Below, in pieces: positions 11,930 through 64,000 of a DNA stretch of 64,000 nucleotides (its first letter is position 1; the number at the start of each line of letters is the position of its first letter). Under the pieces are notes generated by a model. It saw only the letters and a program-made list of their open reading frames with translations, was not told the DNA's origin and searched no databases. Made by a program: the position numbers and the translations under genes. The stretch is from Cyanidioschyzon merolae (lineage: Eukaryota): assembly GCA_000091205.1 (NCBI GenBank), contig AP006502.2. One strand, written 5' to 3'.

Positions 11930-12985
11930 CACTGTGTTCCAATTATCATTTAAACCAGTCTTTACGGTTTGTGTTCCTTGGCTGGTTCCTTTTACACGCT
12001 CTCATCTCGGGGTTTAAAAATGATGGCATGCCCTTTCACATCAGATTCGTTGTCAATATTCGGAGGATAATGAAGGCAGCACTCAAGTCCCGATTTCCCT
12101 GTTTCCGGCAATTGCAAACGCGTTTCGTGTAAAGGCAAATGTTGCGATCTACGACTCTTTCTCGTATACAGCCTTGGTGCATCCTTTACAGCAGCGACAC
12201 TATGGCATGGTCAGGTGTTCCCGTATGTCCTTCAAACCTATTCCTCCGATCGCCGCCCGGTGGCGCGACAAACGCTTAGTTCGTCGCCCGGTACATGCGC
12301 TTAATGGACACAGCGGCTACCAAGATGCTCTCCTCTGTTTAAGCGCCCAGTGCCGCAGCCCACGATCACGGGCTCTTTCGGGGCCACGCACTCGGCGCGT
12401 ACGCTGTCCGCTACACACGCAAGCACACGTTGCTCCATTCGATAGAGATTTTCTGGAACGCGCTGCTGTCCATCATAGAGCAATGCTCGGAAGCGGAAAT
12501 CCACGCTGCATATCAAGTCGAGAAACGTCGTTCTGTCCAGGCTTGGCTCTGACAGAGCTCTGACGCAGTTGCCACCGAGAGCGATCGCTGCGGTGACGCA
12601 AGCCCCAGTACGAGACACGTTTCCACGCAAACGGAAGAGATGGAAGCCTCTGGCTGCATGCCCGGCAGGATGCATCAAGCTGATGTGGAATGCGGTCTCA
12701 CCGTGGGCCACACTGAGAATAGGATTTGCGTTTCGAACGGCTCGAGTATTTGAAGCGACAGTCTCAGTGACCTTGGGGCATGAGCTTGTGAACCAGTGGT
12801 TCAGAGACGACGTCGGGTATTTCTCCTGCTCAATACGACGCTGGCGATTGCTGGGCGCTCGAGCTGCCTTGAAACCGGAGATCGAAACGTGAAAAAAGCG
12901 TGATTGTAGCATGCTACGCGGGAAGAGAGAAGAAAAGCAGCGGCTTGGACGTGCGCATTGGACAATGATGCCAGATGGCTTAAAA
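11930..12985 (-). repeat. R-unit copy R1 (~1.05-kb dispersed two-ORF unit), inverted relative to R2/R3
   Basis: Reverse complement is near-identical to 27762..28700 and 30467..31330, including the conserved upstream block ccaatgc(a/g)(t/c)acgt(a/c)caa...cgcgtagcatgctacaatcacgc. Confidence 0.8.
12301..12912 (-). CDS. R-unit ORF-A, 203 aa (premature TAA from a C>T change removes the last 21 aa of the 224-aa version)
   Basis: MLQSRFFHVSISGF...TFLDLICSVDFRFRALLYDGQQRVPE...VADSVRAECVAPKEPVIVGCGTGRLNRGEHLGSRCVH*; ATG confirmed at 12912-12910. Confidence 0.5.
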   Translation of the reverse strand: MLQSRFFHVSISGFKAARAPSNRQRRIEQEKYPTSSLNHWFTSSCPKVTETVASNTRAVRNANPILSVAHGETAFHISLMHPAGHAARGFHLFRLRGNVSRTGACVTAAIALGGNCVRALSEPSLDRTTFLDLICSVDFRFRALLYDGQQRVPENLYRMEQRVLACVADSVRAECVAPKEPVIVGCGTGRLNRGEHLGSRCVH

Positions 12986-13245
12986 ACGTTTATATGAACT
13001 CGCCGAGAATCGCCTTGATTCCAGTGACGGGACGCTTTCCAGCTGCAAAGAATCGAAACAGCGACTTTTAAAAGATAACCGATAATTAAAAAGTTCCAAA
13101 CGGATGTGTAAACCCCTCATGTTGGAATTCGAATATCGAAAGTGCATATCTGACATCTCGTTCAGAAAAGCATCGAGAGACACCACCGCCTCTCGAAAGT
13201 CGAACGACGTCGCCGGCAGTGTACAGTAGTGGCAAGTGACCCGCC

Positions 13246-14748
13246 CTAGACGAAACGTCTCCGACTGACGTGCAGACGCCTGCCCGTCTTTTTGGACCGG
13301 CCATCTACTACTGCTTCCATCTTCTTCTCATATAATTCAACTTTGAGAGGTTGTCCAATAAAGTTTTCTCTTGTCAGCTCTGGAGGTCTCTTCTCCAGCA
13401 CCGCACATCTCCTTATATTGATTGCGGCGATAAAATCTCGGTTCACAAACTCCATACGTTTCTTGCCATCATTCCTTGTACTCACCAGTGCAAGCAATCC
13501 TCGAACATTCTCCCTCCTTTCCATTTCCTCTTCCGTCAGCGGCCCGTACTTTTTTATGTTCCCAGGGCTCTATTGGCAATTTTCTATCTCCACTCTCTGA
13601 AGTACGCACCCCAGTTCATGGTGTGTATACGAGGTTCGAAACTCATCAACAGGTATCGTGGCGAAACGCCTTGCGCATTCCCTGTACGTTCTTGTCGTTG
13701 GAGTTGGCGTACAACCTTTTTTAGGCGCCAAGCACCCTGCCCCGTACGCTACTACGAGCCTTTGAGTCTTGTCCTCTTTGACGGCACTCAACTAATTGAA
13801 AAAGTTGGCAAACGCCCGCTGCCTCCCACCGTATAGATTCATTCGCAAACGAGCCCACCAGGGCTTGGTATACTCCTCCCACAGCGCATCCCAATGGGCA
13901 ACACGAACTTGCATGAATTTCAGAAAAGCTTCAAAGTCCGCTCCGCGGCTCGTCACCTCGCTCAAAGCTTCCAGGTGATCCTTCATTCCTGCATTCCGTA
14001 TCTCAATTTTCTTCCTCGCATTCGTTATACCCGATTCTCGATAATATATCGCTCTCGAGAGCCTCATCAGACGCATGTCTTTCTGACGTAAGTTGCCGTC
14101 AGCACCATCTTCCGCACGCTTCGGTGCTGCGATGGTTATGATATTCGTATTCCCGGGGCCCGCGCCAACGACAAGGTCGTTATCCTGCACTTTCTGTGTA
14201 TCAGGGCCCGCCTTCTTGTTTTCTTCATGCTTCGCCGCGCCAACCATAAAGGCGTTATCCTGCACCTCCTGCATCACAGGATCCGCTTCCTTCCCATCTT
14301 CATCCTTCGTCACGTCAACGACAAGGTCGTTATCCGGCATCATCTGCGTCGCATGATCCTCCTCTTTGTTTTCTTCATGCTTCGCCGCGTCAACGACAAG
14401 GTCGTCATCCTGCACTTCCAGTGTGGCAGGTTCGGCGTCCTTCTCATCTTCATGCTTCGCCGAGGGCGGGACCAAACGATCTGCCTTCAATCGCCGATTG
14501 TGTGCACACAAGTCTACTCCATCGGTTTCGATCATCCCAGTGAATACATTTTGTTTGCTCTTTTTGAGACGTTTGAAATCGAAGATATTCTTCCAGTGCG
14601 TCTCCCGGTTTTCGCCAGTGAAGTCCTCCCTGCGAACATTGAACTCCGGACAGATCTCCCTCATGATGCCATGAGGGACGCCAGAGTCGATAGTCACAAA
14701 ATGTGACTTGGTGTTGCATAATGGAACAACGTCGAAGCGCTTCCCCAT
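13246..14748 (-). pseudogene. TnpB/Fanzor-like RuvC-family nuclease ORF, single frame interrupted by two in-frame TAG stops (at 13792-13794 and 13570-13572)
   Basis: Three listed ORFs (13792..14748, 13570..13791, 13246..13524) are in one frame. C-terminus KKRMEFVNRDFIAAINIRRCAVL matches the RuvC-III motif (N-R/A-D-x-NAAxNI) of TnpB/Cas12/Fanzor; upstream IPVDEFRTSYTHHELGC resembles the pre-zinc-finger TS motif; FVTIDSG is a candidate RuvC-I. Confidence 0.6.
14160..14440. repeat. about 4.5 tandem copies of a ~63-bp (21-codon) acidic repeat inside the TnpB-like ORF
   Basis: Peptide repeats [83 protein letters not shown]. Confidence 0.6.
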
Positions 14749-14840
14749 TAGGAGAGCCTTCCGTCTCTCCCATTCTTCATTTTTTCCTCACTCAGCTTTA
14801 TTTCCGCCTTGCGTTCGAGCTCTCGGTCCAGAAACGCGAA

Positions 14841-15383
14841 CTAACATAGGATGAGGCGATAGTATCTTTCCTTACCTTTTTTCAACTTTGATATCTTGTC
14901 TGTTGGATTCACCAGCCCCATGACTGCACGGTCTTCTTGTATAAGCGCACGGATTACAGAAGCTTCATTCGTGCTCTCTTTTGACGCCTTCTTGTCGACA
15001 AATTCGACCTCATCTTCATGCTTGCGATCGTTCGTGATGCCATTGATAATCGCCCATTTTCCTTTGCAAGAGATGCCCGAGTAGAGTGCAAACACGGCGC
15101 GTATCATGAAACGTTCGAGGTTCATTGTCAAATAGTTCTTCAGATTCGTGAGGTACTTCATCGCCCCATAGTCGTAAATATCCCGGTCACACTTGTATCG
15201 AGTACCGTTGAAGCTGTAAAAGGGATGTTTTTCGTGCAAGGCATGCACTAGCACATTTTCCCCCTGCGCTTCCGCTGTACCAAGTATCAGGTGAGGAATA
15301 AAGGTCTTATCGAAAAACACGTCCGGAATCTCGACCGTTTCCATGTACGTCACGTCTTTGTAGATCTCCCTCGCCAAATGCAT
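14841..15383 (-). CDS. hypothetical 180-aa ORF directly upstream of the TnpB-like ORF; possibly its frameshifted N-terminal (WED/REC-like) region
   Basis: ATG at 15383; ends 93 nt before the ATG of the 13792..14748 ORF in a different frame; no recognisable motifs. Confidence 0.3.
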   Translation of the reverse strand: MHLAREIYKDVTYMETVEIPDVFFDKTFIPHLILGTAEAQGENVLVHALHEKHPFYSFNGTRYKCDRDIYDYGAMKYLTNLKNYLTMNLERFMIRAVFALYSGISCKGKWAIINGITNDRKHEDEVEFVDKKASKESTNEASVIRALIQEDRAVMGLVNPTDKISKLKKGKERYYRLILC

Positions 15384-17253
15384 CAGTCCCGACGACGCCT
15401 TGACGATACTCTTAGAGTACGAGTCGACACGTTATTTTTATAGCATCTCGCAACTTTTCCCTGTAGGGATCCTTGATATGTTCAAGAAAACAGGTCTTCA
15501 CCACCATCTCGTCGTAGAGTTGTCTTCCCCGCGCAGCCTTCGACTTAGGGCATCCCCCTTTCGGTTCTTCTCCTCTTCCATTTCTTCTGGACTCGGCACT
15601 GTTCTTTGTTTATTTTTATGGCAGCTGGAGACCCTGAGCCTCCAAGATCGTGGACTTGCTTTTTCATAACTTTCCTTTTTTTAGTTTTTTTTTGAAAAAG
15701 AACACTCTTTGAACGCTTCTGTTATATTCTGCGAATAAACACTCGAGTGTTTTTACTTGAGGTTTGAAACACGACTGAGATGAAACAATATATTTTGTTA
15801 CGATTCCAATGCAAATACAAGTCTTACGTTAGAACAAAACGCTACTGATTACGATCGCGTTTCCCTTCAACGGCGACATGCGCGTCGCGTCAGTTGACTG
15901 CCTGATCTCCTTGGTGCGCTCACCGAGCGGGATGCAAACTAGTCACAAACTTTTTATCAAAGATCAACTATCTTAAAAGCCCCACACACCACGCCCGCCT
16001 AAGTGGTCCAATTTTTCCGGAGAAGCTCTGAAAGTGGGTTAACACGAATGTTTGGGCGACGAGGAAGGAAGCCCACTCCAGGGACCTTGACCGCAACGAA
16101 CGGAGGGGCAGAGGCAGTAGCAGAGAATGATGACGAGAATTCGAAGTAGTTATCCGCTGCTCTCGAAACAAGGCTGCAGGTTCGGGCGCAAATCCTGGAT
16201 CCATCCTTGAATTCGGGCTCAGTTTTATGGTCTATCTTGGTTTCTACCTCAACTTTGGAAACAATCTCGGCGGATACTTTGGAAGACGGCTGACAGCATG
16301 TTCGCCGTCGAAGCTGACATAAGCGACTTGCCCGCCTATGTGTTTGGGGAGCGGATACGAAACCGCTGAAAGGGTGGTTTGTAGACTGTTCCCAATGGTT
16401 TAGGGTGGCTTCACGCGTCCGGCAAGATAAAGGTCGCATTTGAATCGACCTTGACTAATGTACTTTTGATTCTATGCTAGCGCTGCGGCAGATACGCAAT
16501 GAACGACTGGAATGCAGGAGGCAATGGTGGCTTGTGCGCTCACATACCCCGTGGAGGGTGCATCTAAATCGACCTTCTAGTCGGAAGGTCCAGCGAATCG
16601 GATACGCACACTGGCACATTGCGCTTTCTGCGCTTACCCACTGTGGTGGGTGTCAAGCACAAACCCGCATTGCCAACCGACAACAACGCATTCCATGCAT
16701 GATCACGAAGGAGAGAGGCGGCTCCCAGAATGTATCCTAACAGCCAAGTTTCTCCAGCGTGTCGTGCAGCGAAGGCAAGCTTGCATCCGCAGACTGTCCA
16801 AGCACAAACTGACGACGAGATCCGATTCTACGTCGGGTGAAGCACACCTCGAGCCGACGCCCTCTGTGGTATAGAAAAGCTGTTCCAGCTCCATGAACTA
16901 TCTGCTCCAGCATTTAAGGTGCAAAGGCGGACACGGAAAGGCAGGTAGTAGGCACACAAAATATGACGTGTGAAACGACCAGAATATCCGAGAATAAAGT
17001 CTGGGTAATGGAGCTTGGAGGCAGGGCGTTTGATGGATACTTTACAGTGCACTGAAAAAACACAAGAAAAGTAAGAAGAAAAATGTACATAATCGGAGAA
17101 CGCTGGCCTAAGTAAACGTTTTGTCGATGAAAAAAATACGATACAACGCCAACTGGGCATACGGTTGTATCTCGGGGACGGAGACTTTCGGCGCAGATTC
17201 CCTTGCGAAAAAGCACCGCTCTCCGTACTTTTCCGGAAACTCTGGTTGGACAG

Positions 17254-22199: not shown

Positions 22200-22650
22200 C
22201 AATAAAAAATCCAAGGGAAAGGTATGGACATGCAATTCGAGGATCCTGGAGGCTCGGTGTCGCCGAGTACCGGAGAAGAAACGGAAAAAACGTCTTCTCG
22301 CTGATCATCGAGCGAAGAAGAGCAAGCGAAGAAGAAACGGGAGATAGGCGAGAAAAAATGCGTTTGCCCGACTGAACGATAATGAGACGCTAGTGGCACT
22401 GGGGACATGAGTCCGAGCAATACTTGCAATGGTGCGTTCCACCAGAGGCAACAAACGCATGGAATTCGTGAACCGAGACTTGAATGCCGCCATCCATATC
22501 AGACGAGGAGTGGTGCTGAAGACGAGACTCGCACAGCTGATGTAATCCAGCTCTGGGGCGCAGCTTCTCAGGCTCGAAGTGTGCCCGGATCAATCGAATC
22601 CGATCGCAGGCGACCAGTCAGAAAAGGCTGGGAGTCGTTTGTAAGTGGAA
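22200..22650 (+). mobile_element. 5'-truncated TnpB/Fanzor-like copy (C-terminal RuvC-III region only), decayed
   Basis: Frame-2 translation ...AMVRSTRGNKRMEFVNRDLNAAIHIRRGVVLKTRLAQLM*; nucleotide homology to 46720..47185 begins at aaaatccaagggaa(a/g)ggtatgga. Confidence 0.55.
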
Positions 22651-25699: not shown

Positions 25700-26640
25700 G
25701 AGGGTCAATATATGAACATTCACAGGCGCTTCCCAGCCTTTTTCACGGTTGGCCTGCTATCGGTTTCAATTTCTCACTGCGCACTTGGAGCTTGTGAGGC
25801 TGTACCACGAAGTTAGATCGCGTCGACTCCTCGAGTCTCGTCTTCAGCACCCTACATCTCCTGATTTTGATGGAAATGTTGAAGTCTCGGTTTTCGAACT
25901 CCAAGCTTGTCTTGCCGCTGGTTCTACTTGCCAATGCATGGTGTCCTCGAATACGTGCCCTCGGTGCCATTTGCTGTTCTGTCAGCTCTCCGTGCTTTTC
26001 TATCGTCGAAGCGCTCCGCTGCCTTCTCTTCTATCCCAAACCTCTGAAGTGTAAACCACAGCTCATCCCGTATTTGTTTCTAAAATGAACCCACTTCCTA
26101 GTGCCCTTTGGTGTGGACCTTCCCTGAGGGGGACACGCTTGCGGCACAAAGGCGGAATAGACACCGTCCTGGTCGCGTGCCGAAAGCTTCTGTGAGTCGC
26201 CCAGTGGCGCGATCATTACGTTTCAGGATACAGAACGCTCCTTCGGTGACGTTGAACCACGGAGAGTATGGAGCAATGGAAAGCAACTCTACCTCCCAAT
26301 AGCATCGGCAAAAGCTTGCACGCAATAAAAATGGTGAAATGGCGCGTTGTCGTCTGGAAAGACGTCTCCAGACGTGGGGAGAAGGGTCTTCAATGATTCG
26401 GCAAAGTGGGTGTTGTTGTATGAGCCTTCCCTACGAGCGAAACTGAGGCCGTCAAATATATCCACTGCAGCTGGAGCCGATGATGATGCCTTAGCTCTTT
26501 TCGAGTTCGATCGTACATACAACGGACCCCCTGCTCCGCGAGTACCCATATACGCCCCGACCGTATCGCTCGGACGAAGTCTCACTGACTGGCAAAACAA
26601 ACTGACGTCACTTTGCTTCATATCGATCGTGACATTCCAG
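25700..26640 (-). mobile_element. 5'-truncated TnpB/Fanzor-like copy, decayed (frameshifts between three ORF pieces)
   Basis: ORFs 26289..26621 (..VGAYMGTRGAGGPLY..), 26098..26325 (..SPWFNVTEGAF..) and 25743..25970 (..SLEFENRDFNISIKIRRCRVLKTRLEESTRSNF..) are collinear with the 46240..47185 copy. Confidence 0.55.
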
Positions 26641-34503: not shown

Positions 34504-35312
34504 TGCGCCGCCAACAGTGATACGGACGCCTCAACCCGACGCCCTCAGTGGCATGGCAAAACCGTTCTGTCTCCGTGCAGTACCTGCTTCAGCGGGATAA
34601 GCGCTACGGCGAGAGCTCAAAACAGCTACTCGGCACACGATAGAACATACGAAACGACCAGTATACCCGAGAGGAAGTATGGGTTATAGAACTTGAAGGT
34701 AGGCGCTTCATCATTAACGCTTTCCCGAAATCCAGTATCCGTTCCGAATTCTGGAATCCAAGGTCAATCTAAACATTTTGTCATCTGAAAAACTTCAGTT
34801 ATGCGGAACGCTCCGCGTATTGGACGCCCTGCTCGCAAGCATCTCCAGTGGAGCTCTGGCCGCCTTGTCTGCCGCTAGCATCTTTTGTGCTACTGGGGGA
34901 TCACTGCTCCGACACAATGATAAGGTGGCATGGAAAATGGCCTAGTTCATTCAGTAACCCGCTTACGAGCGAGCAAGATTTGCGCTGATTGGCTAGTGCA
35001 CCCAGATGCACGCAACCGACGGCATGGAATTGGGTCAAGTCTGTTCAAGAATTCGTTCACGAACGAGTAACATTTTTGCTGTCGGGGTATCGTGCCTGAG
35101 TGCACGCATCCTGCACCATGAACGTGAGATCAGGTGAATGGAACAGCCCTGAACGTGTCGTATTCTTTAGTGTCATTTGCAGTGAAGGAAACGGCGCTGG
35201 AACAAAGCAAAAATGACGCCAAAGCGGGGCATCGCCGTCGGATCGGTTGCGCACACTAGACATCGCTGCGTCCGGGTTTGCTGGACTCGTAAGCGACCGA
35301 TTACTTCAGTTT

Positions 35313-44285: not shown

Positions 44286-44942
44286 AGAAAAAGCCTGCAG
44301 ATGCTGACTTGTGCGGAATCACGGGAAGCGTTCCAAACGTTTCAGTGTGTATGCCCGAGTTAGCTTTGCGCAGTCGTTCCACTGAATACGAATATGGGTA
44401 CATGCGTTCCCAACTCAATGCAGCAATCCTGTACAAAGAAAAGATCCCATCGAGCCGATGCCCTCTGTGGAATGGCAAAGCTGTTCTGTTTTTGTGCTGC
44501 ACCCGCTCCAGCTGTTTAGGCGCTGTTGCGGATGCTCTCGGCAGGCGCTAGGCACACGATAGAACGAATGAAACGACCAGTATTTCCGAGAAGAAGTATG
44601 GGTCATGTAACTTGGAAGCAGCATATGGATCGATGGATGCCTCGCCGCGCACCGAAACAAAAAACCAAAAAAAAGAAAGGAAAAGAAGAGTCGCTCATTC
44701 GGAGAACGCTGGAATATGGAAACGCCGTGTCAATTAAAAAAATAGAACAAAATTACCACACCGTGTCCAGGATCGCGAAGCGCAGGCCGACGTCCGTCGA
44801 ACGCGGCGCCTACGTGCCACGCGTATTTCGCATGGAAACTGTTGTTGTAGCGTCGCACCCCGAAGCTCACGAGAGCGTGCTTTCTTAACTTGGCCCTAGC
44901 ACGTGAGCTGAAGCATACTCCCCCAACGGCCAGACAAGTTTT

Positions 44943-46239: not shown

Positions 46240-47185
46240 TGAGACTTCCCTCTGACAAAACGGTCTCAGCGCATATGGGTACTCGCGGAGCAGGAAGCCC
46301 CCTGTATGCACGATGGAAATCGAGAAGAACGAGGACATCTTCCTCTGTTCTAACTGCAGGGAATTCATCTGGCGGCCTCCGTTTCGCTCGTAGAGAGGGC
46401 TCATCCAACAGCATCGTTTTCGTAGCATCATTCAAGACTTTTCCCCTTACGTCTAATGACTTCCATCTATCGGACAACGGAAAATTTCACCGTTCTCTGT
46501 GCGTTGGAACTTTTGCCGACGCTAACGGGGTAGAGCTGCTTTTCATTCCTGTGTAGGCCCCGTGGTTCAACTCCATCGAAGGAGCGTTTTCTATCGTGAA
46601 ACTTAACGATCGCGTCGCTGGACAAGTCCCTACGGCTTCCAGCACACTGGGGCACTTATTGACTTTCTAGCTCTGCGAATTTCCATACCTAAAGGCATAA
46701 AGAGCAGCTTTCATGCGAAGAATTACAAAATCCAAGGGAAGGGTATGGAGATGGAAATCGAGGATCCTGGAGGCCCGCCATCCTCGGCTGCCGGAAAAGA
46801 ACGAATAGAATCCTCTTCTCGCGAAAAGCCGAACGAAGAAGAGCCAGTGACGAAGAAGAAGATGGGAAATGGGTAAGGACAGTGGTTCGCCCGATGGTAC
46901 GATGACGAGACTGTTGTGACACAGGGAGCACGAGTACTAGTAATCCTTGCAATAATGTGTTCAACCAGCGGCGGGAAACGCATGGAGTTCTTGAACCGAG
47001 ACTTCAACGCCGCCATTCATATCAGAAGATGTGCGGTGCTCAAGACAAGATCCGCGGAGCTGACACGACCCAACTTCCTGGGGCAGTCTCTCAGGCTCGA
47101 AGTGCACGGTGAAAAACTGCAACCGATAGCAGGGGAACGGTCAGAAACGGCTGGGAGGCGCCTGTGAGTTGGTATATATATGCAG
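46240..47185 (+). mobile_element. 5'-truncated TnpB/Fanzor-like copy, decayed
   Basis: ORF 46221..46556 (..VSAHMGTRGAGSPLY..), frame-shifted ..PWFNSIEGAFSIVKLNDR.., then ORF 46916..47167 ..CSTSGGKRMEFLNRDFNAAIHIRRCAVLKTRSAELTRPNFLGQSLRLEVHGEKLQPIAG. Confidence 0.55.
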
Positions 47186-52471: not shown

Positions 52472-52511
52472 GTTTTCTGGCTTGTGGAATCCATTCAACA
52501 AAGACGTTTGG

Positions 52512-54025
52512 ACTCAGAAACGTCCAATGGTGGAACTCCGTTGTCATCTACCGATTGCCGACGAAAACCCTTCCCAGTGTATAAATACGGTGCTCCCTCG
52601 TTTCTGGATTGCTGAAACCGACCTCACCAATGACTTCATCCAGGAAATCATCCAATATCCTGGCTCATGGCCACAGATGTTTCTCGACGAACGTCGATAG
52701 CGTTGCAGCACAACGCCAGTACCGCGTACGAAACGATTTGCCTGAAAGTTCGGTCGGCAGAAAGTCGCAGGACGCTCCGCAAGCACCAGATATTACCGAA
52801 TGCCGATCGAGTCGCTCAAGTCCTAGTACACCGTGTGCTTGTGTACATTGCGGGGTGTGGCGTATCACAGCAAAGCAGGCGCTCAGCTTGGATTGCCTCG
52901 CCATCTGGTGTTCGGTCTGCTTGCCATACGCCATGCTGCGCATCCGGCACGGAGTTGCGCTGCTCTTGTTCTCTACCAGTTTCAGCAAGCACCCGTGCTC
53001 GTGATGTGTGGATGTCGTCCTGAGCGCATCGATGGGAGTGTTCCAGGGTCCATTCTCGCACACGTTGGACGCCCTCGTTGAAGGGGCAGGAATGCAGGTG
53101 CTGTTCGCTACCGGACGTGTATCGCGCTGGACTCGCGCCAAACGACCCGACTTGTCAGCCGTTTCCATTGCCGCCCTGTAAACGAGGAACCTCCGGTGAG
53201 ACGCGTAAATGCACTTCGTAAAGTCGCTCGAGTGCTTCGCGCTTGCTCACAAACACCAGCTGCAGCTCGCCAAGGAGCCCGCGCACCACACTACACATGT
53301 GTCTCCGTGCATCTCGTGGATCTACGTGTAACGTACGCGCACGATACCCAGTAGACGCGGGACGAGCAAGAACGGTCGGCTTCGGCGGCGGACGCTGCGT
53401 CGCTCTGGAGGGATCAGCTCAGGGTCGCTCTCGCAGGTGTCTTGCCTGCGAGCGGCGGAGTCCCTCTTTAGTGAGTACCCGTGTATCGGCGTATCAGTTC
53501 TCTCCCGAGTGAGGTCTTGTCGAGTGCGAGAAACATCCGTTCGTGGTGTAGCACAGGCTGGCCATTCCGGCACGGAATCCTCAGCATATGGATCAATGCG
53601 GGACGGTCTCGAGTAGAGGCATGCGTTTCTCGTTGTCCAACCGCGTCTCTTCATCAGCGTTTGCATCAGCCATGCGAAAGCTGTGCTTTCTTTGGTCTCT
53701 TCTATGGTATTTCTCGGAAACGTGTGTTATGAAATGAATCGACGAGGAGGTAGTCGTTCAGCTAGAAATTCAAAAATTCTGTTTTCGGTGCTCGACATTC
53801 AACATAAGGCGTAGGCGGTGTGATGCCCATGGACCGTCTGCGTGCAGGACACTTGACTTGCAGAGGTAAACCCATTTTCGGAAGCGAAAGCGGCAGAATC
53901 AAGTCTTTCCGCGAACATTCTCTAGTCGGCAGCACATATTTCTTTTATTGCATACTTGCGAGAAAAACTAGCGAATAGGCGGGTTGGTACAAGTGCTCCA
54001 GAATTCACTGCTCCATGTGTAACCA
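52512..54025 (+). repeat. 1.5-kb direct repeat, copy A (~99.6% identical to copy B)
   Basis: Identity begins at actcag(a/t)aacgtccaatggtggaactccg and ends at ...ccatgtgtaacca; only a handful of single-base differences seen by eye (cct/ctt, gta/ata, gac/ggc, gga/gaa). Confidence 0.9.
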
Positions 54026-55394
54026 ATTCTTTTCTGATGACAAAACGTTTACATCGACCATGGATCCGAGGATTCGGAAAGTATAATGGCTTTCGGGAAA
54101 GCGTCCATCATGAAGCATCTAGCTTCAAGTTCTATCACCCATACATGCTCTCTGATATACTGGTCGTTTCGTATGTTCTATAGTGCGCCGACTAGCTGTT
54201 TTGAGCACCCGCCGTAGCGCTTATATACCGCTGAAGCAGGTGCTGCACGGAGACAGAACGGCTTTGGCATACCGCTGAGGGCGTCGGCTCGAGGCGTGGT
54301 TCATCGGACACGGAGTCGGAGTACTTAATCATTCTAGGAGCCTGGAAGCTGCGCGGAGAGACGCACTGCCTGCGGCGGCACGGTGCGATATACTGGGCGT
54401 CCACTGCGACCAGGGCGACGCCCAGACGCAGCATACACGCTCCTAGTCCCAGATTGAATTGCATTGCGGACGAGTAGCTCAGGTTTCTTTAAAGAACCCG
54501 CCACTGAAGGAAGCATGAAGCACTAGCTAGCCCCGAAGACTCGTCCGGCTCGCGGGACCTTCCGCCTAGAAGGTAAACTTTCCAAGATACTGAAACTTTT
54601 CCCCATTTCAACGCTTACAATTAAGATCAAACGAAACTGTTATCGAGTTGCTAGTCAGTGCATAGTTTCTGTTTTTTTTTCGCATCGACGTCGATGCTCG
54701 GTGGATCAGGGCCTAGTTCCATTCAGCGGCAGCGACGGCGTGCCAGAATCCTGATGGAAGTGCTTTAAGAGGCTGCTTGTTTGAAGGTTAGCCTATTTGC
54801 GCTCGGGTCGCTGCTCTTTCTATATTGTCCGGGAAGAGTTCTTCGACAAGCATTGACCTTAGACGGCGAGAAGCAGCGCTTAGAGTCACAGCAAAGCTGC
54901 TTTCTGCGAAAACTGCGCGCAGGACAAGCGGTGACGCTTCCTTCGAGAGCGGCGCTCTTGGTTTTGGTGCGACAGGAACGGCTCGCAGTTCGGTAGACTT
55001 GGGTTTGGGTGGAGCTCGGAGATTTAAGGTGGTGCGCGAGATTGATAAGCGTAAACGAGTGGCGCGTTCCGCAACGTGCGATTCTTCGTGGCACCGAGGA
55101 GAACGCACGCATCCTCTAGCTTGAGCGTCACGCATTTTGTTTTGCTTACGTTGAGGCCTTCATAGATTGGTGGCGTCTTTGACAAGATCCGGGAATTTTT
55201 CGTTGCCCAGGGGCGAGATTTTTGAGACCAGGGGGTATCCCAGCCAAGTTACCGGAACTGCACCGCACTCGTGGCCGGTGTTCAACGAACGGCGATTTTG
55301 AGAGTCTTCTGAGCACGTATCCAGCGGATATAGTAGCGTTCACGAGACACGTACGTGCTTACCCGTGAACCCCTGTCGCCTCTCGAAGGGCATC

Positions 55395-57080: not shown

Positions 57081-57157
57081 GATGGGCGCGGTGTTCAGGA
57101 CGGGAAACGAATACTGCGCCAAAAGCGCCATGCTGCAAACCGACGGGGGTCGGTGTA

Positions 57158-58670
57158 CTCAGTAACGTCCAATGGTGGAACTCCGTTGTCATCTACCGAT
57201 TGCCGACGAAAACCCTTCCCAGTGTATAAATACGGTGCTCCCTCGTTTCTGGATTGCTGAAACCGACCTCACCAATGACTTCATCCAGGAAATCATCCAA
57301 TATCCTGGCTCATGGCCACAGATGTTTCTCGACGAACGTCGATAGCGTTGCAGCACAACGCCAGTACCGCGTACGAAACGATTTGCCTGAAAGTTCGGTC
57401 GGCAGAAAGTCGCAGGACGCTCCGCAAGCACCAGATATTACCGAATGCCGATCGAGTCGCTCAAGTCTTAGTACACCGTGTGCTTGTGTACATTGCGGGG
57501 TGTGGCGTATCACAGCAAAGCAGGCGCTCAGCTTGGATTGCCTCGCCATCTGGTGTTCGGTCTGCTTGCCATACGCCATGCTGCGCATCCGGCACGGAGT
57601 TGCGCTGCTCTTGTTCTCTACCAGTTTCAGCAAGCACCCGTGCTCGTGATGTGTGGATGTCGTCCTGAGCGCATCGATGGGAGTGTTCCAGGGTCCATTC
57701 TCGCACACGTTGGACGCCCTCGTTGAAGGGGCAGGAATGCAGGTGCTGTTCGCTACCGGACGTGTATCGCGCTGGACTCGCGCCAAACGACCCGACTTGT
57801 CAGCCGTTTCCATTGCCGCCCTGTAAACGAGGAACCTCCGGTGAGACGCGTAAATGCACTTCGTAAAGTCGCTCGAGTGCTTCGCGCTTGCTCACAAACA
57901 CCAGCTGCAGCTCGCCAAGGAGCCCGCGCACCACACTACACATGTGTCTCCGTGCATCTCGTGGATCTACGTGTAACATACGCGCACGATACCCAGTAGA
58001 CGCGGGACGAGCAAGAACGGTCGGCTTCGGCGGCGGGCGCTGCGTCGCTCTGGAGGGATCAGCTCAGGGTCGCTCTCGCAGGTGTCTTGCCTGCGAGCGG
58101 CGGAGTCCCTCTTTAGTGAGTACCCGTGTATCGGCGTATCAGTTCTCTCCCGAGTGAGGTCTTGTCGAGTGCGAGAAACATCCGTTCGTGGTGTAGCACA
58201 GGCTGGCCATTCCGGCACGGAATCCTCAGCATATGGATCAATGCGGGACGGTCTCGAGTAGAGGCATGCGTTTCTCGTTGTCCAACCGCGTCTCTTCATC
58301 AGCGTTTGCATCAGCCATGCGAAAGCTGTGCTTTCTTTGGTCTCTTCTATGGTATTTCTCGGAAACGTGTGTTATGAAATGAATCGACGAGGAGGTAGTC
58401 GTTCAGCTAGAAATTCAAAAATTCTGTTTTCGGTGCTCGACATTCAACATAAGGCGTAGGCGGTGTGATGCCCATGGACCGTCTGCGTGCAGGACACTTG
58501 ACTTGCAGAGGTAAACCCATTTTCGAAAGCGAAAGCGGCAGAATCAAGTCTTTCCGCGAACATTCTCTAGTCGGCAGCACATATTTCTTTTATTGCATAC
58601 TTGCGAGAAAAACTAGCGAATAGGCGGGTTGGTACAAGTGCTCCAGAATTCACTGCTCCATGTGTAACCA
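57158..58670 (+). repeat. 1.5-kb direct repeat, copy B
   Basis: See copy A; starts 78 bp after the LKB1-like kinase stop. Confidence 0.9.
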
Positions 58671-61050: not shown

Positions 61051-64000
61051 TTGTTCTGATAGCTTGAGTGTTCTCGAACGAACGCGTCGCACAACGACCA
61101 GAGCGTAGACTGGAACGGAGCTGCTCACGCAGACACACCCTTCTCCGGGTTTGCGCTGTGCGTAAGTCTCCTATCGACAAGGTAAGCGCGTTTGAAAAAC
61201 CCGCTGTACGCCCTTCTGAAGTCAACTTTTCGAATGAAGACCCAAGGGGCTTGTAAAAAAACTGGCAGTACGGCTCGTGGTGCGATTGCTGTGCTGCCCC
61301 AAAGCTCTGGCAAGCAGCTCTGCCGCGAGTGCTCGCTGCCTACAGTCTGCCTTTTAAGTGACACCACACTCGACGACTGCTGATGCCAGTCTGCTTCCTC
61401 TGAAGACCTTCAAAGGCTTACCACAAGTGTTATCGTCTAAACGCTCCCAGTGTGTGGACGCTGAGGTGCCTCAGAGTATGCGGCGAAAACTCGCCCACAA
61501 CACGTCAAACATTCGAAGCGCATACCGCGGGATACTCGATGGTGCGTTCATGAGGCCGATTCGCTGCGCAGCGCGCGGCTGCCGCGGGCCTCAGACGCCA
61601 ACGATCTCAAATTGCGACGGTGATGGCGTGCGCGTCTGCCCGAGGTGCGCGCAACAGTCGCTGGCAATGATGCGGAGTTCTTCGGGATTGGGCTGGTGCG
61701 GAGGCCGCAGCTGGAGGCGGCCAGCGTAAGGATCAGATCCTCTGCACAACGGACTATGAAACGTATTGGGGCCGCGCCCCAGGTCAGATACCTCTGTGAT
61801 AGACATCGAGGTAACGCGCTCCACTGCATGAGTATTGGAACAGAGATTCCACGCATGAACCAGGGTAGCATCTGTACGTAGGGGGCATAGCTGAATCGAA
61901 CAAGCTCATGATCTTCGATGGAGCACTACTCCAGAACGGATAGAGCCTGCAACAGCCAGCAGTGAAACAGAGACCTTCTACCTGGTTCCTGGAGGCTTCC
62001 GCTGCTCGAAACAATCCTGACTTGATATAGGGTCCTGGAATGTGAAAATTTCCTGCTTCAGCGATAGCAGGGATATGAGGCGGTTGCATGCGCCGCCCCT
62101 GACGTTGAGAATCTTGTAACACGGGGCGCGTCGCTTCCTGCGAATCATGGCAGTGGCTCCACGGATGAGGCTATCTCGGCCAGCTTGGCTGCGATCTCGT
62201 GCTGATTTCGCTGCAATTGTCTCGCGTTCCCGGCTCGAATGCTTCCTCAGGCAATGGCGGGGGTCTCTCACCGCCCCAAGGGCCGTCCATGGAATCCCAC
62301 TCGTGCGATCTGGTTGAAAACGTTCCATATATAAATACAATGGAGCTTTCGAATTTCTGGTACACACTGTTTGTCGGAAATAAGCTCGTGATGCGGGCTT
62401 CCTCTCGTTCGCATTGTCGTCCACGTGACCGAGTAAACATCTAAAGCGATCAACTCGAACTGAGTCTCATGGAGCGATCCACGGTGCGCTGCATTATGCG
62501 TCCTGCGACCAACGCAGACCGCAGTATCCGCGAGGCAGCAATTGCAGATCCTAGTGACCGTGGAGCGCCTCGGCCAGACGCAAACACTGCGTCTCTGACA
62601 TTAGCGTCGTGCCGGGTGTTCTGTCAAGCAAAATTGTCCAGTGAGTTTACTACCATAGCATTCGGGGTAACAGTCTAGACTTCGTGTTGAAGGACGTTCA
62701 ATTGCCACGGCCGACTGTGAGTACTCCAACGAACAGGCTATTCGTCGCGAGGATGAGGTGCCCAGCGATTGCTGTACGATCTGTTCGTTCTATTCGCTTG
62801 GCTCGAGCCAATAGACCTATTGCGGGCAAAAAGGGCTCAAACCCATCGAAGCCAGGATCCTTTATGGAAACTCTAAACGCTACCTATTAGAACGGTATCT
62901 CTGTATTCAGCAGGGAAGCTGAAAATGAACAGGCTCAAGCGGCTGCACGAGAGCTGCCGCTGATCAGCGCTCATACACCACCTGCTTGGCGACCGAGGCC
63001 ACTTGTTACAGCCTGTCCAGTATCCCTGTAAGGAACAGAGGCCCAGTCCGGTAGACCTGCGAATTCGTACGGATATCCGCCGGTTGCGACGCATCCCAAC
63101 GGACATCTGGTCGAAGATCCCACAGACAGGGATCCCCTGGCTCGTATAAACGATCCTAAACCCAAAACATTCATGTTCAAACCCGAATTCGATGCTTTCG
63201 CAAAAAAACGCTTTTCTCAGAAAAGAACATTATCGACAAGTACCTGCCAGATTGATTTGATGGACAGAGCAGTTGCACTCACCATAGACACCTGATTGCT
63301 TGATTGATATCGGCATCTTGGAGAGCGTTTATCATGTTTCATCCTACCTCCGGGTTTTACCAGCTACCACAGGTACCTCCCTTGCGAGACAGCGGCCATT
63401 TCGTACGATCCACTCAGCGCGAAGCCTGCTACGGGCGTCCACAGTGGCGCCCACAGCGCCGGCGCGGATGCAGGACGGAGTCAGAACGCCTTTACCACAC
63501 CACTGGAGAAATCAGCTCGAAATGTGATTCACTCGTCACAGGGTCGGGACGCGTGGATATTCTGGGATATAGTAGACCGCTCAGACAGACCTACTGCTGG
63601 CACTGGCGCGAAACGAATCTCCAGGAGACCGTATCGACCAGGGCGGGGCCGAGACGCAGGCCGCCCTCTCCGGCTACAGAAGAGACTCTATTGCGGAGAG
63701 GTTGCTCCGGATTTGCCACAGCTTTCGGTACTGGAGGCGCACGGTGCTCCATTCTGCATACTCCTCCAACTGGCAGGATCTTTGTCCTAGACAGTAACCC
63801 TCCGAATGTACATAAATCATTCCTCGGTTCATCTCTTGCCTGGGACGCGGGGAACATCGATGAACTACTTGCCAGCTAGCACACAGTTTCTTTTGCCATT
63901 TTCTTTCTAGCTGCTGTCCAGTGGTTAGGTTCTCTCCCTAAAACGAGCCCATAGCGGACGACGCGGCACCGAGTACAGCTGCATCGGACGCGTCTCGCTA

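Follow-up and report, generated by a model that had tools for sequence, protein, structure and literature searches.

A dead copy of the Fanzor1-carrying repeat family CMe-1A from Cyanidioschyzon merolae, a red alga

What is the origin of three consecutive minus-strand open reading frames (ORFs) which, read end to end, yield a product reminiscent of a RuvC nuclease? They lie at 13792-14748, 13570-13791 and 13246-13524 of a stretch of 64,000 nucleotides of Cyanidioschyzon merolae contig AP006502.2 (assembly GCA_000091205.1), referred to here as the window. An original prediction, made from the letters of the sequence alone, had taken them for the remains of a near-full-length nuclease gene of the TnpB/Fanzor type. 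Profile, fold and motif evidence bears this out, and with a probability of roughly 0.93 the locus represents a defunct copy of CMe-1A, a repeat family of C. merolae that carries a Fanzor1 gene. The Fanzor1 pseudogene occupies 13246-15667, from an ATG at 15665-15667 to a terminal TAG at 13246-13248. Unless a strand is given, all features described below are on the minus strand.

Homology, fold and catalytic residues of the conceptual product

Translation of 13240-14850 confirmed that the three ORFs share one frame and are separated by single codons, both of them TAG (13792-13794 and 13570-13572). The frame reads FANFFN-stop-LSAVKED, further on IENCQ-stop-SPGNIKK, then FVNRDFIAAINIRRC, and ends in RRRFV followed by a stop; VDEFRTS, RLVVAYGAG, NRDFIAAINI and FVTIDSG are all present in the concatenated translation. 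With the resulting 500-aa conceptual product, 131 homologues were found at E values down to 2.4e-249 (the relative P0120 at 1.2e-51), and the three-ORF pattern is therefore a real interrupted gene and not a product of chance. The ORF at 14841-15383 (180 aa), which had been suspected of being a frameshifted N-terminal region, is indeed the N-terminal part of the same gene, beyond a third TAG and a -1 shift near 14787. In tblastn, residues 1-271 of P0003 (752 aa, the longest close relative) matched 15599-14784 and residues 273-752 matched 14781-13354 in another frame. With P0003 as with the published CMe-1 protein the whole pseudogene span was covered, the frame shifting along the way.

The class of the protein was determined by profile and fold comparisons. 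A family profile of 11 sequences, compared with the sequences in the PDB, identified Parasitella Fanzor1 (E = 3.6e-9), and a profile of 123 sequences identified PpFz1 (2.9e-19), SpuFz1 (1.3e-10) and GtFz1 (1.3e-3). A single-sequence phmmer search of the PDB sequences returned just one irrelevant match at 0.77. Structure comparison, which had been suggested as a check, was done with an AlphaFold2 model of P0120 (pLDDT, the predicted local distance difference test, 93.2; predicted TM-score 0.89). The top seven Foldseek matches of this model were all Fanzor1 structures (E 5e-20 to 6e-15, TM 0.6-0.7), and Cas12f appeared only after them, at 1e-5. Over its full length the fold is nearer to solved Fanzor1 (SpuFz1, 8gkh and 9ceu-9cez; PpFz1, 9cf0-9cf3; GtFz1, 9cer-9cet) than to Fanzor2 (9b0l), prokaryotic TnpB (ISDra2, 8h1j; ISFba1, 8iaz) or Cas12, and TnpB, Fanzor2 and Cas12f are all far more distant from the family than Fanzor1 is. 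Sequence identity between the family and the solved Fanzor1 proteins is nevertheless just 12-17%. Also unlike TnpB systems, the locus has no TnpA partner.

Conservation of the catalytic motifs was scored in the 123-sequence family alignment. The RuvC-I strand is VVGA(D>G)PGNTN at 14143-14172, and not FVTIDSG as originally proposed. The Asp of its GxDPG motif (Asp384) is present in 123/123 relatives, the Pro is nearly invariant and the Gly invariant. In the window copy the Asp codon (14158-14160) reads GGC where the consensus has GAC, which turns GADPG into GAGPG. The family thus possesses the DPG of Fanzor1 and the window copy has had it destroyed by mutation, which is a lesion of a member and does not run counter to its descent. 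The canonical RuvC-II site (VVAYGAG, 13735-13755) holds a Gly (Gly511) in all 123 relatives. The catalytic Glu is found instead 35 residues on, as measured in the consensus from VVAYGAG to VDEFRTS (13630-13650), where this relocated residue (Ealt; Glu545, codon 13642-13644) is again present in 123/123 sequences, is intact in the window copy, and aligns with the DEY/FxTS of solved SpuFz1 and PpFz1. In RuvC-III (FVNRDFIAAINI, 13414-13449) Arg588 is conserved in 123/123 and Asp589 in 122/123 relatives, giving the (N)RD of Fanzor1; the Asp codon of the window copy (13435-13437) is intact, and two residues on an Asn has become Ile.

This arrangement corresponds to the published Fanzor signature, in which DPG at RuvC-I is accompanied by an alternative Glu, Gly or Pro standing where the canonical Glu would be (PMC10711439, PMC10530073). 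The alternative Glu is located about 45 residues downstream and is essential in ApmFNuc (PMC10530073). Solved Fanzor1 proteins share with the family the DPG, the Gly at RuvC-II, Ealt within DE(F/Y)xTS and the NRD of RuvC-III, whereas canonical TnpB combines a D-hydrophobic-G RuvC-I with a Glu at the canonical RuvC-II position (PMC10711439). Conserved residues G500 and E536 had already been remarked on by Bao and Jurka (PMC3627910). Because the pattern matches this signature, RLVVAYGAG is normal for a Fanzor and catalytic degeneracy does not apply to the family: the original prediction was right that no Glu is evident at the canonical site, and wrong in considering degeneracy as the cause.

Relationship to CMe-1A, lesions and boundaries of the element

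The genome had been thought oomycete-like. The CCT-beta product encoded at 47288-48901 matches a protein of C. merolae 10D at 100% identity, which identifies this red alga as the host. The genes in the window are intronless and eukaryotic, and include two CCT subunits, ZPR1, kinases and a patatin-like gene. The second-best match of the CCT-beta product in NCBI, JGI and Logan data, P0241, is just 85% identical, which suggests that a related species is represented in metagenomes.

CMe-1A is the sole Fanzor1 family listed for C. merolae by Bao and Jurka (2013, Mobile DNA 4:12; PMC3627910). According to these authors it numbers about 150 copies that each share about 80% identity with a 3169-bp consensus, some of them still intact; it encodes a 734-aa protein and has no terminal inverted repeats (target-site duplications undetermined), and its 5' 635 bp constitute a separate repeat, TE-N2_CMe (PMC3627910). 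In tblastn, residues 1-630 of their CMe-1 protein matched 15632-13564 in segments of 64%, 77% and 81% identity. The window copy further resembles CMe-1A in its genome, its protein family, its size class (a 2755-bp core plus 5' modules compared with 3169 bp), the absence of terminal inverted repeats, the many old and diverged copies and the kinship of its 5' part with TE-N2_CMe. What was found is thus not new: the locus is a decayed member of a family already in the literature.

The state of the gene was assessed against a consensus representing the majority of 44 aligned full-length copies drawn from 83 related loci fetched from metagenomes. Read from its first Met, this consensus gives one uninterrupted ORF of 784 codons (788 stop-free codons), with which the pseudogene span agrees. 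The window copy is 88.6% identical to it; this figure refers to the metagenome-copy consensus, and the roughly 80% of the paper to that paper's own. Relative to the consensus the window copy has four frameshifts, three premature TAG stops and the RuvC-I Asp>Gly exchange, and because of these it cannot make the protein. This decay sets the window copy apart from CMe-1A as published. Three frameshifts are N-terminal (15425-15615; +2 at about 15610, +2 at about 15530 and +1 at about 15434) and walk the frame through 2>1>0>1 with respect to the consensus protein. The first premature stop, TAT(Tyr)>TAG at 14841-14843, closes the 180-aa ORF, reading across it giving RLILC-stop-FAFLDRELERK. The fourth frameshift (-1) is a deletion of 1 nt at about 14783 in a poly-A run (A7>A6, 14783-14792); the frame change at about 14787 links the frame of ORF 14841-15383 to that of ORF 13792-14748. 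Premature stops 2 and 3 are CAG(Gln)>TAG at 13792-13794 and CGG(Arg)>TAG at 13570-13572, the latter by two substitutions. One additional 75-nt repeat unit and a 12-nt deletion also distinguish the window copy from the consensus. The original prediction had therefore read its two in-frame TAG codons correctly, and it fell short of the true extent of the gene and of its damage. That each of the premature stops (13570-13572, 13792-13794, 14841-14843) is a TAG, derived from CGG, CAG and TAT, respectively, is probably simply what a fairly GC-rich coding sequence yields.

That inactivation was recent, as had been supposed, is not supported. Metagenome contig L001 (3016 bp) matches window positions 12855-15873 at 98.4% identity, and since the match takes in 326 bp of flank past the right end of the element, L001 is the orthologous locus. 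It has the same three stops and the same Asp>Gly exchange, and its gene calls mirror the ORF structure of the window; these shared lesions place inactivation before the split of the two sequences, which differ by 1.6%. A second candidate for a syntenic orthologue, L002, was rejected because the upstream piece it has in common with the window (16572-17136) is itself a dispersed repeat. The ratio of nonsynonymous to synonymous changes (pN/pS) versus the consensus is 0.45 for the window copy and 0.34-0.57 for the other 44 aligned copies, values that fit a history of purifying selection while lineages were active and of decay thereafter. A frame of at least 700 codons with all three motifs is held by only 3 of the 83 related loci, and the broken copy is therefore the typical state.

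The limits of the element were derived from blastn against the 83 loci. The core repeat unit, composed of 5' leader, Fanzor1 ORF and 3' tail, measures 2755 bp (13181-15935): coverage climbs from 1 locus to 77-83 within about 13181-13200 and, near 15935, drops from about 55 to 8, and the commonest ends of high-scoring segment pairs are 13187, 13181 and 15935. The conserved 5' leader (15668-15935) extends about 270 nt upstream of the ATG with a per-column agreement of 0.76-0.87 among the 44 copies. At the other end is a conserved non-coding 3' tail of 65 nt (13181-13245; agreement 0.80-0.81) with two hairpin-capable segments, which can be aligned in 38 copies. Conservation of tail and leader is about equal to that of the coding sequence. 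Immediately after the right end, about 10 of the 38 aligned copies have the sequence GGTGGTG(G/T) (13176-13195 in the window; also the flanks of L002, L003, L006, L008, L011, L056, L063 and L066). This is either an extension of the element by a few bases in one subfamily, or a favoured insertion or guide-adjacent sequence.

Upstream of the core two modules follow. Segment A (15936-16573, 638 bp) is joined to the Fanzor unit at its 5' end in some of the copies; it was found in 9 related loci, in 5 of them end to end (1-638) at 85-86% identity. Segment B (16574-17136, 563 bp) is a diverged relative of TE-N2_CMe and recurs nearly end to end in L056, L002, L006 and L009; the published CMe-1A 5' 630 nt match 16832-17043 at 74% over 212 nt. 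Segment A, lying between the TE-N2-like module and the Fanzor unit, is missing from the published description of CMe-1A.

A further difference concerns an acidic tandem repeat at 14160-14462, for which Tandem Repeats Finder reported a period of 75 nt (25 aa), 4.0 copies and 73% matches. Its unit, AKHEExKEADPxTQEVxDNDLVV, occurs four times in the window copy, three times in the metagenome consensus, about once in the published CMe-1 protein, at least six times in P0001 and not at all in distant relatives. The repeat adjoins the RuvC-I strand on its N-terminal side, and its position coincides with the only internal low-confidence loop of the P0120 model (residues 361-367); the region is probably a surface loop tolerant of insertions. 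Given that segment A separates the TE-N2-like module from the core, the window copy may represent a different subfamily, or a composite, relative to the published CMe-1A.

Related remnants are scattered over the window. Three CMe-1-like relics with only the C-terminal RuvC-III part are located at 22405-22575 (+), 25800-26100 (-) and 46900-47100 (+), an example being MEFLNRDFNAAIHIRRCAVLKTR; relics of the Fanzor 3' end seem to outnumber other fragments. A 1517-bp duplication (52509-54025 and 57154-58670; 99.6% identity, 4645 bp apart) contains in each half a minus-strand Fanzor C-terminal relic (52700-53159 and 57345-57804). These are about 44% identical at the amino acid level to P0098-type relatives versus about 39% to CMe-1, a similarity suggesting that the C. 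merolae genome also harbours another and older Fanzor1 lineage. Copies of the TE-N2_CMe/CMe-1A 5' module without a Fanzor gene are found at 54036-54671 (+, 82%), 34529-34785 (-, 83%), 44450-44616 (-, 83%) and 63273-63823 (+, 66%), identities being those to the published 630 nt. Metagenomes contain at least 491 CMe-1-like stretches. These come from few metagenomes, on contigs of up to 160 kb with eukaryotic genes (loci L004-L083 from JGI contigs Ga0078972, Ga0080006, Ga0207433, JGI24721J44947 and others), presumably from Cyanidioschyzon-like algae.

Points against the assignment and alternative explanations

Several results weigh against the assignment to Fanzor1 and to a mobile element of this kind. 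(i) The modelled protein P0120 is a 38%-identical relative and not the window product itself. (ii) Pfam hmmscan with the 500-aa product and the 180-aa upstream ORF, a test that had been recommended with PF01385 and PF07282, gave nothing at E <= 10, the models for OrfB_IS605 and TNB included. PF07282 (Cas12f1-like TNB, formerly OrfB_Zn_ribbon) scored 15.3 bits (E = 0.024) with P0120 and 12.1 bits with P0003, below its cut-off of 26.3. (iii) When terminal inverted repeats were sought around the unit, only short matches at chance level came up, and neither such repeats nor target-site duplications were found. (iv) For 38 aligned 3' ends, the consensus from RNAalifold was not meaningful (-4.1 kcal/mol); in two 3' hairpins specified by hand, pairing amounted to 84.5%, a value reached by 76 of 500 shuffles, with no significant covariation; and an Rfam scan of the window gave no match, so that an omega-RNA is not demonstrated. 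(v) No CxxC was present between the Glu and the RD in any of the 123 aligned relatives, and a four-cysteine (C4) zinc ribbon has been termed strictly conserved in Fanzor and TnpB (PMC3627910). A tRNA scan of the window likewise yielded nothing.

The Pfam result does not refute homology, since the profile comparison with the PDB and the fold comparison establish it. The only Pfam label that the relatives bear in precomputed annotation (some of these labels weak) is PF26935 (DUF8286), for example in P0001, P0003, P0015 and L001 (1123-2079); the Pfam scan run here on intact relatives did not report it. P0015 is just a 318-aa piece from the WED/REC part to RuvC-I, and DUF8286 therefore falls within the N-terminal two thirds of Fanzor1. 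The clade concerned is large: its cluster representatives number 6451 when E is at most 1e-3 and 906 when it is at most 1e-30.

Absence of the zinc ribbon, correctly noted from the window sequence, extends to the whole clade. A regular expression for Ealt, C4 and D, modelled on a published one with looser spacings, matched 0/124 further representatives. The zinc finger has been reported in 'many', not all, Fanzors (PMC10711439), so its absence is a peculiarity of the clade and does not exclude it from Fanzor1. Unlike SpuFz1 (CPRC ... CTNPNC) and PpFz1, the CMe-1 family has the CxxC...CxxC replaced: at the positions aligned to the Cys ligands of these two proteins it has H/Y/F, D/T, C (99/123) and N/Q/E. 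In the C. merolae subfamily LLALVST stands in place of the LLWC of others, so that the third Cys is gone as well, and the window sequence at this place is TSYTHHELGC...LLALVST. The P0120 model has a confident beta insert in the ribbon region (strands 560-587). Absence of the ribbon throughout the clade is the one mildly new point of this analysis. A tentative reading, which we consider possible and somewhat doubtful, is that the CMe-1-like clade is a large Fanzor1 lineage that dispensed with the C4 ribbon and kept the invariant D-E-D triad and a confidently predicted TNB-like beta insert.

An intact element would encode one protein of about 734-784 aa, a Fanzor1 predicted to be an RNA-guided DNA endonuclease. 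Its predicted parts are REC and WED, a single split RuvC (Asp in GxDPG, Glu in VDEFRTS, Asp in NRD) and the TNB-like beta insert. To judge from the solved complexes of Fanzor1 and TnpB, it would bind an omega-RNA whose template is the gene's 3' end together with the right end of the element, the 3' tail described above being expected to form the 3' part of the scaffold. Guide-matched DNA next to a target-adjacent motif (TAM) would then be cut by the single RuvC site, and guided cutting is thought to aid persistence or spread of the element.

From this scheme follows the alternative that survives best, which would add to the explanation as a dead CMe-1A copy and not exclude it. The protein gene would be dead while its 3' end (about 13181-13400) is still transcribed to an omega-RNA used in trans by an intact CMe-1 Fanzor1 elsewhere, which would make the locus a non-autonomous guide-RNA module instead of inert debris. 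TnpB and Fanzor systems carry the sequence for their omega-RNA at the right end (PMC10530073, PMC10711439), and folding of the 220-nt 3' region gave z = -1.98 against shuffles (2 of 200 shuffles). Moreover, the relics at 22405-22575, 25800-26100 and 46900-47100 keep just the 3'-terminal part of the gene, and across the 44 copies conservation of the 3' tail is about equal to that of the coding sequence. That very equality, however, means that shared descent may suffice to explain the tail, and the 3' hairpins lack both significant covariation and an RNAalifold consensus. On balance we regard a role as guide-RNA source as rather unlikely.

Considerably less credible is domestication, in which the 318-aa ORF (13792-14748) would be a truncated host protein that kept the WED/REC part and the RuvC-I strand. 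An ORF of this kind, at 97% identity, is called as a gene in the orthologous metagenome contig. It lacks two of the three RuvC segments, however, and has lost the RuvC-I Asp; pN/pS over the whole copy is like that of other decayed copies, the divergence of 1.6% from the orthologous contig is too little to reveal constraint, and the scarcity of long frames with three motifs among the 83 loci points the same way.

A functional gene whose TAG codons are read through or recoded to give a full-length protein is even harder to defend. All premature stops are TAG, as such a reading would have it, but four frameshifts break the frame too and the invariant RuvC-I Asp is gone. Reassignment of TAG was rejected on these frameshifts, on the residues that relatives have at the three codons (Tyr, Gln and Arg, three different amino acids), and on the ordinary standard-code ORFs for CCT subunits, ZPR1 and kinases in the window, one of which is 100% identical to an annotated C. 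merolae protein. Finally, that the NRDFxAAINI match is a coincidence and the ORFs stem from an unrelated repeat protein, as the missing Pfam match and the fruitless single-sequence PDB search might suggest, is refuted by profile matches to three Fanzor1 proteins (to 2.9e-19) and the full-length fold agreement with Fanzor1 structures, and sits no better with D, E and RD residues that are invariant where expected in a family already published as Fanzor1.

Implications for the CMe-1-like clade

As one of about 150 decayed copies catalogued in 2013, the locus itself carries very little weight. The class of proteins to which its gene belongs was shown to consist of RNA-guided nucleases in 2023. The analysis corrects the motif assignment: RuvC-I is VVGA(D>G)PG, and a RuvC-II Glu that seemed 'missing' is explained as the ordinary Fanzor rearrangement. 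For the clade, it indicates that standard Pfam models miss CMe-1-like proteins and that surveys for Fanzors by motif or regular expression would miss them too where CxxC...CxxC is required. The overlap with DUF8286 could aid the annotation of thousands of 'hypothetical' eukaryotic proteins, and that domain could be renamed. If the zinc-free reading is true, the window copy is still a dead relic; if in addition intact members are active, the clade would comprise RNA-guided nucleases independent of zinc, whose surface loop ahead of RuvC-I accommodates variable tandem insertions of 25 aa.

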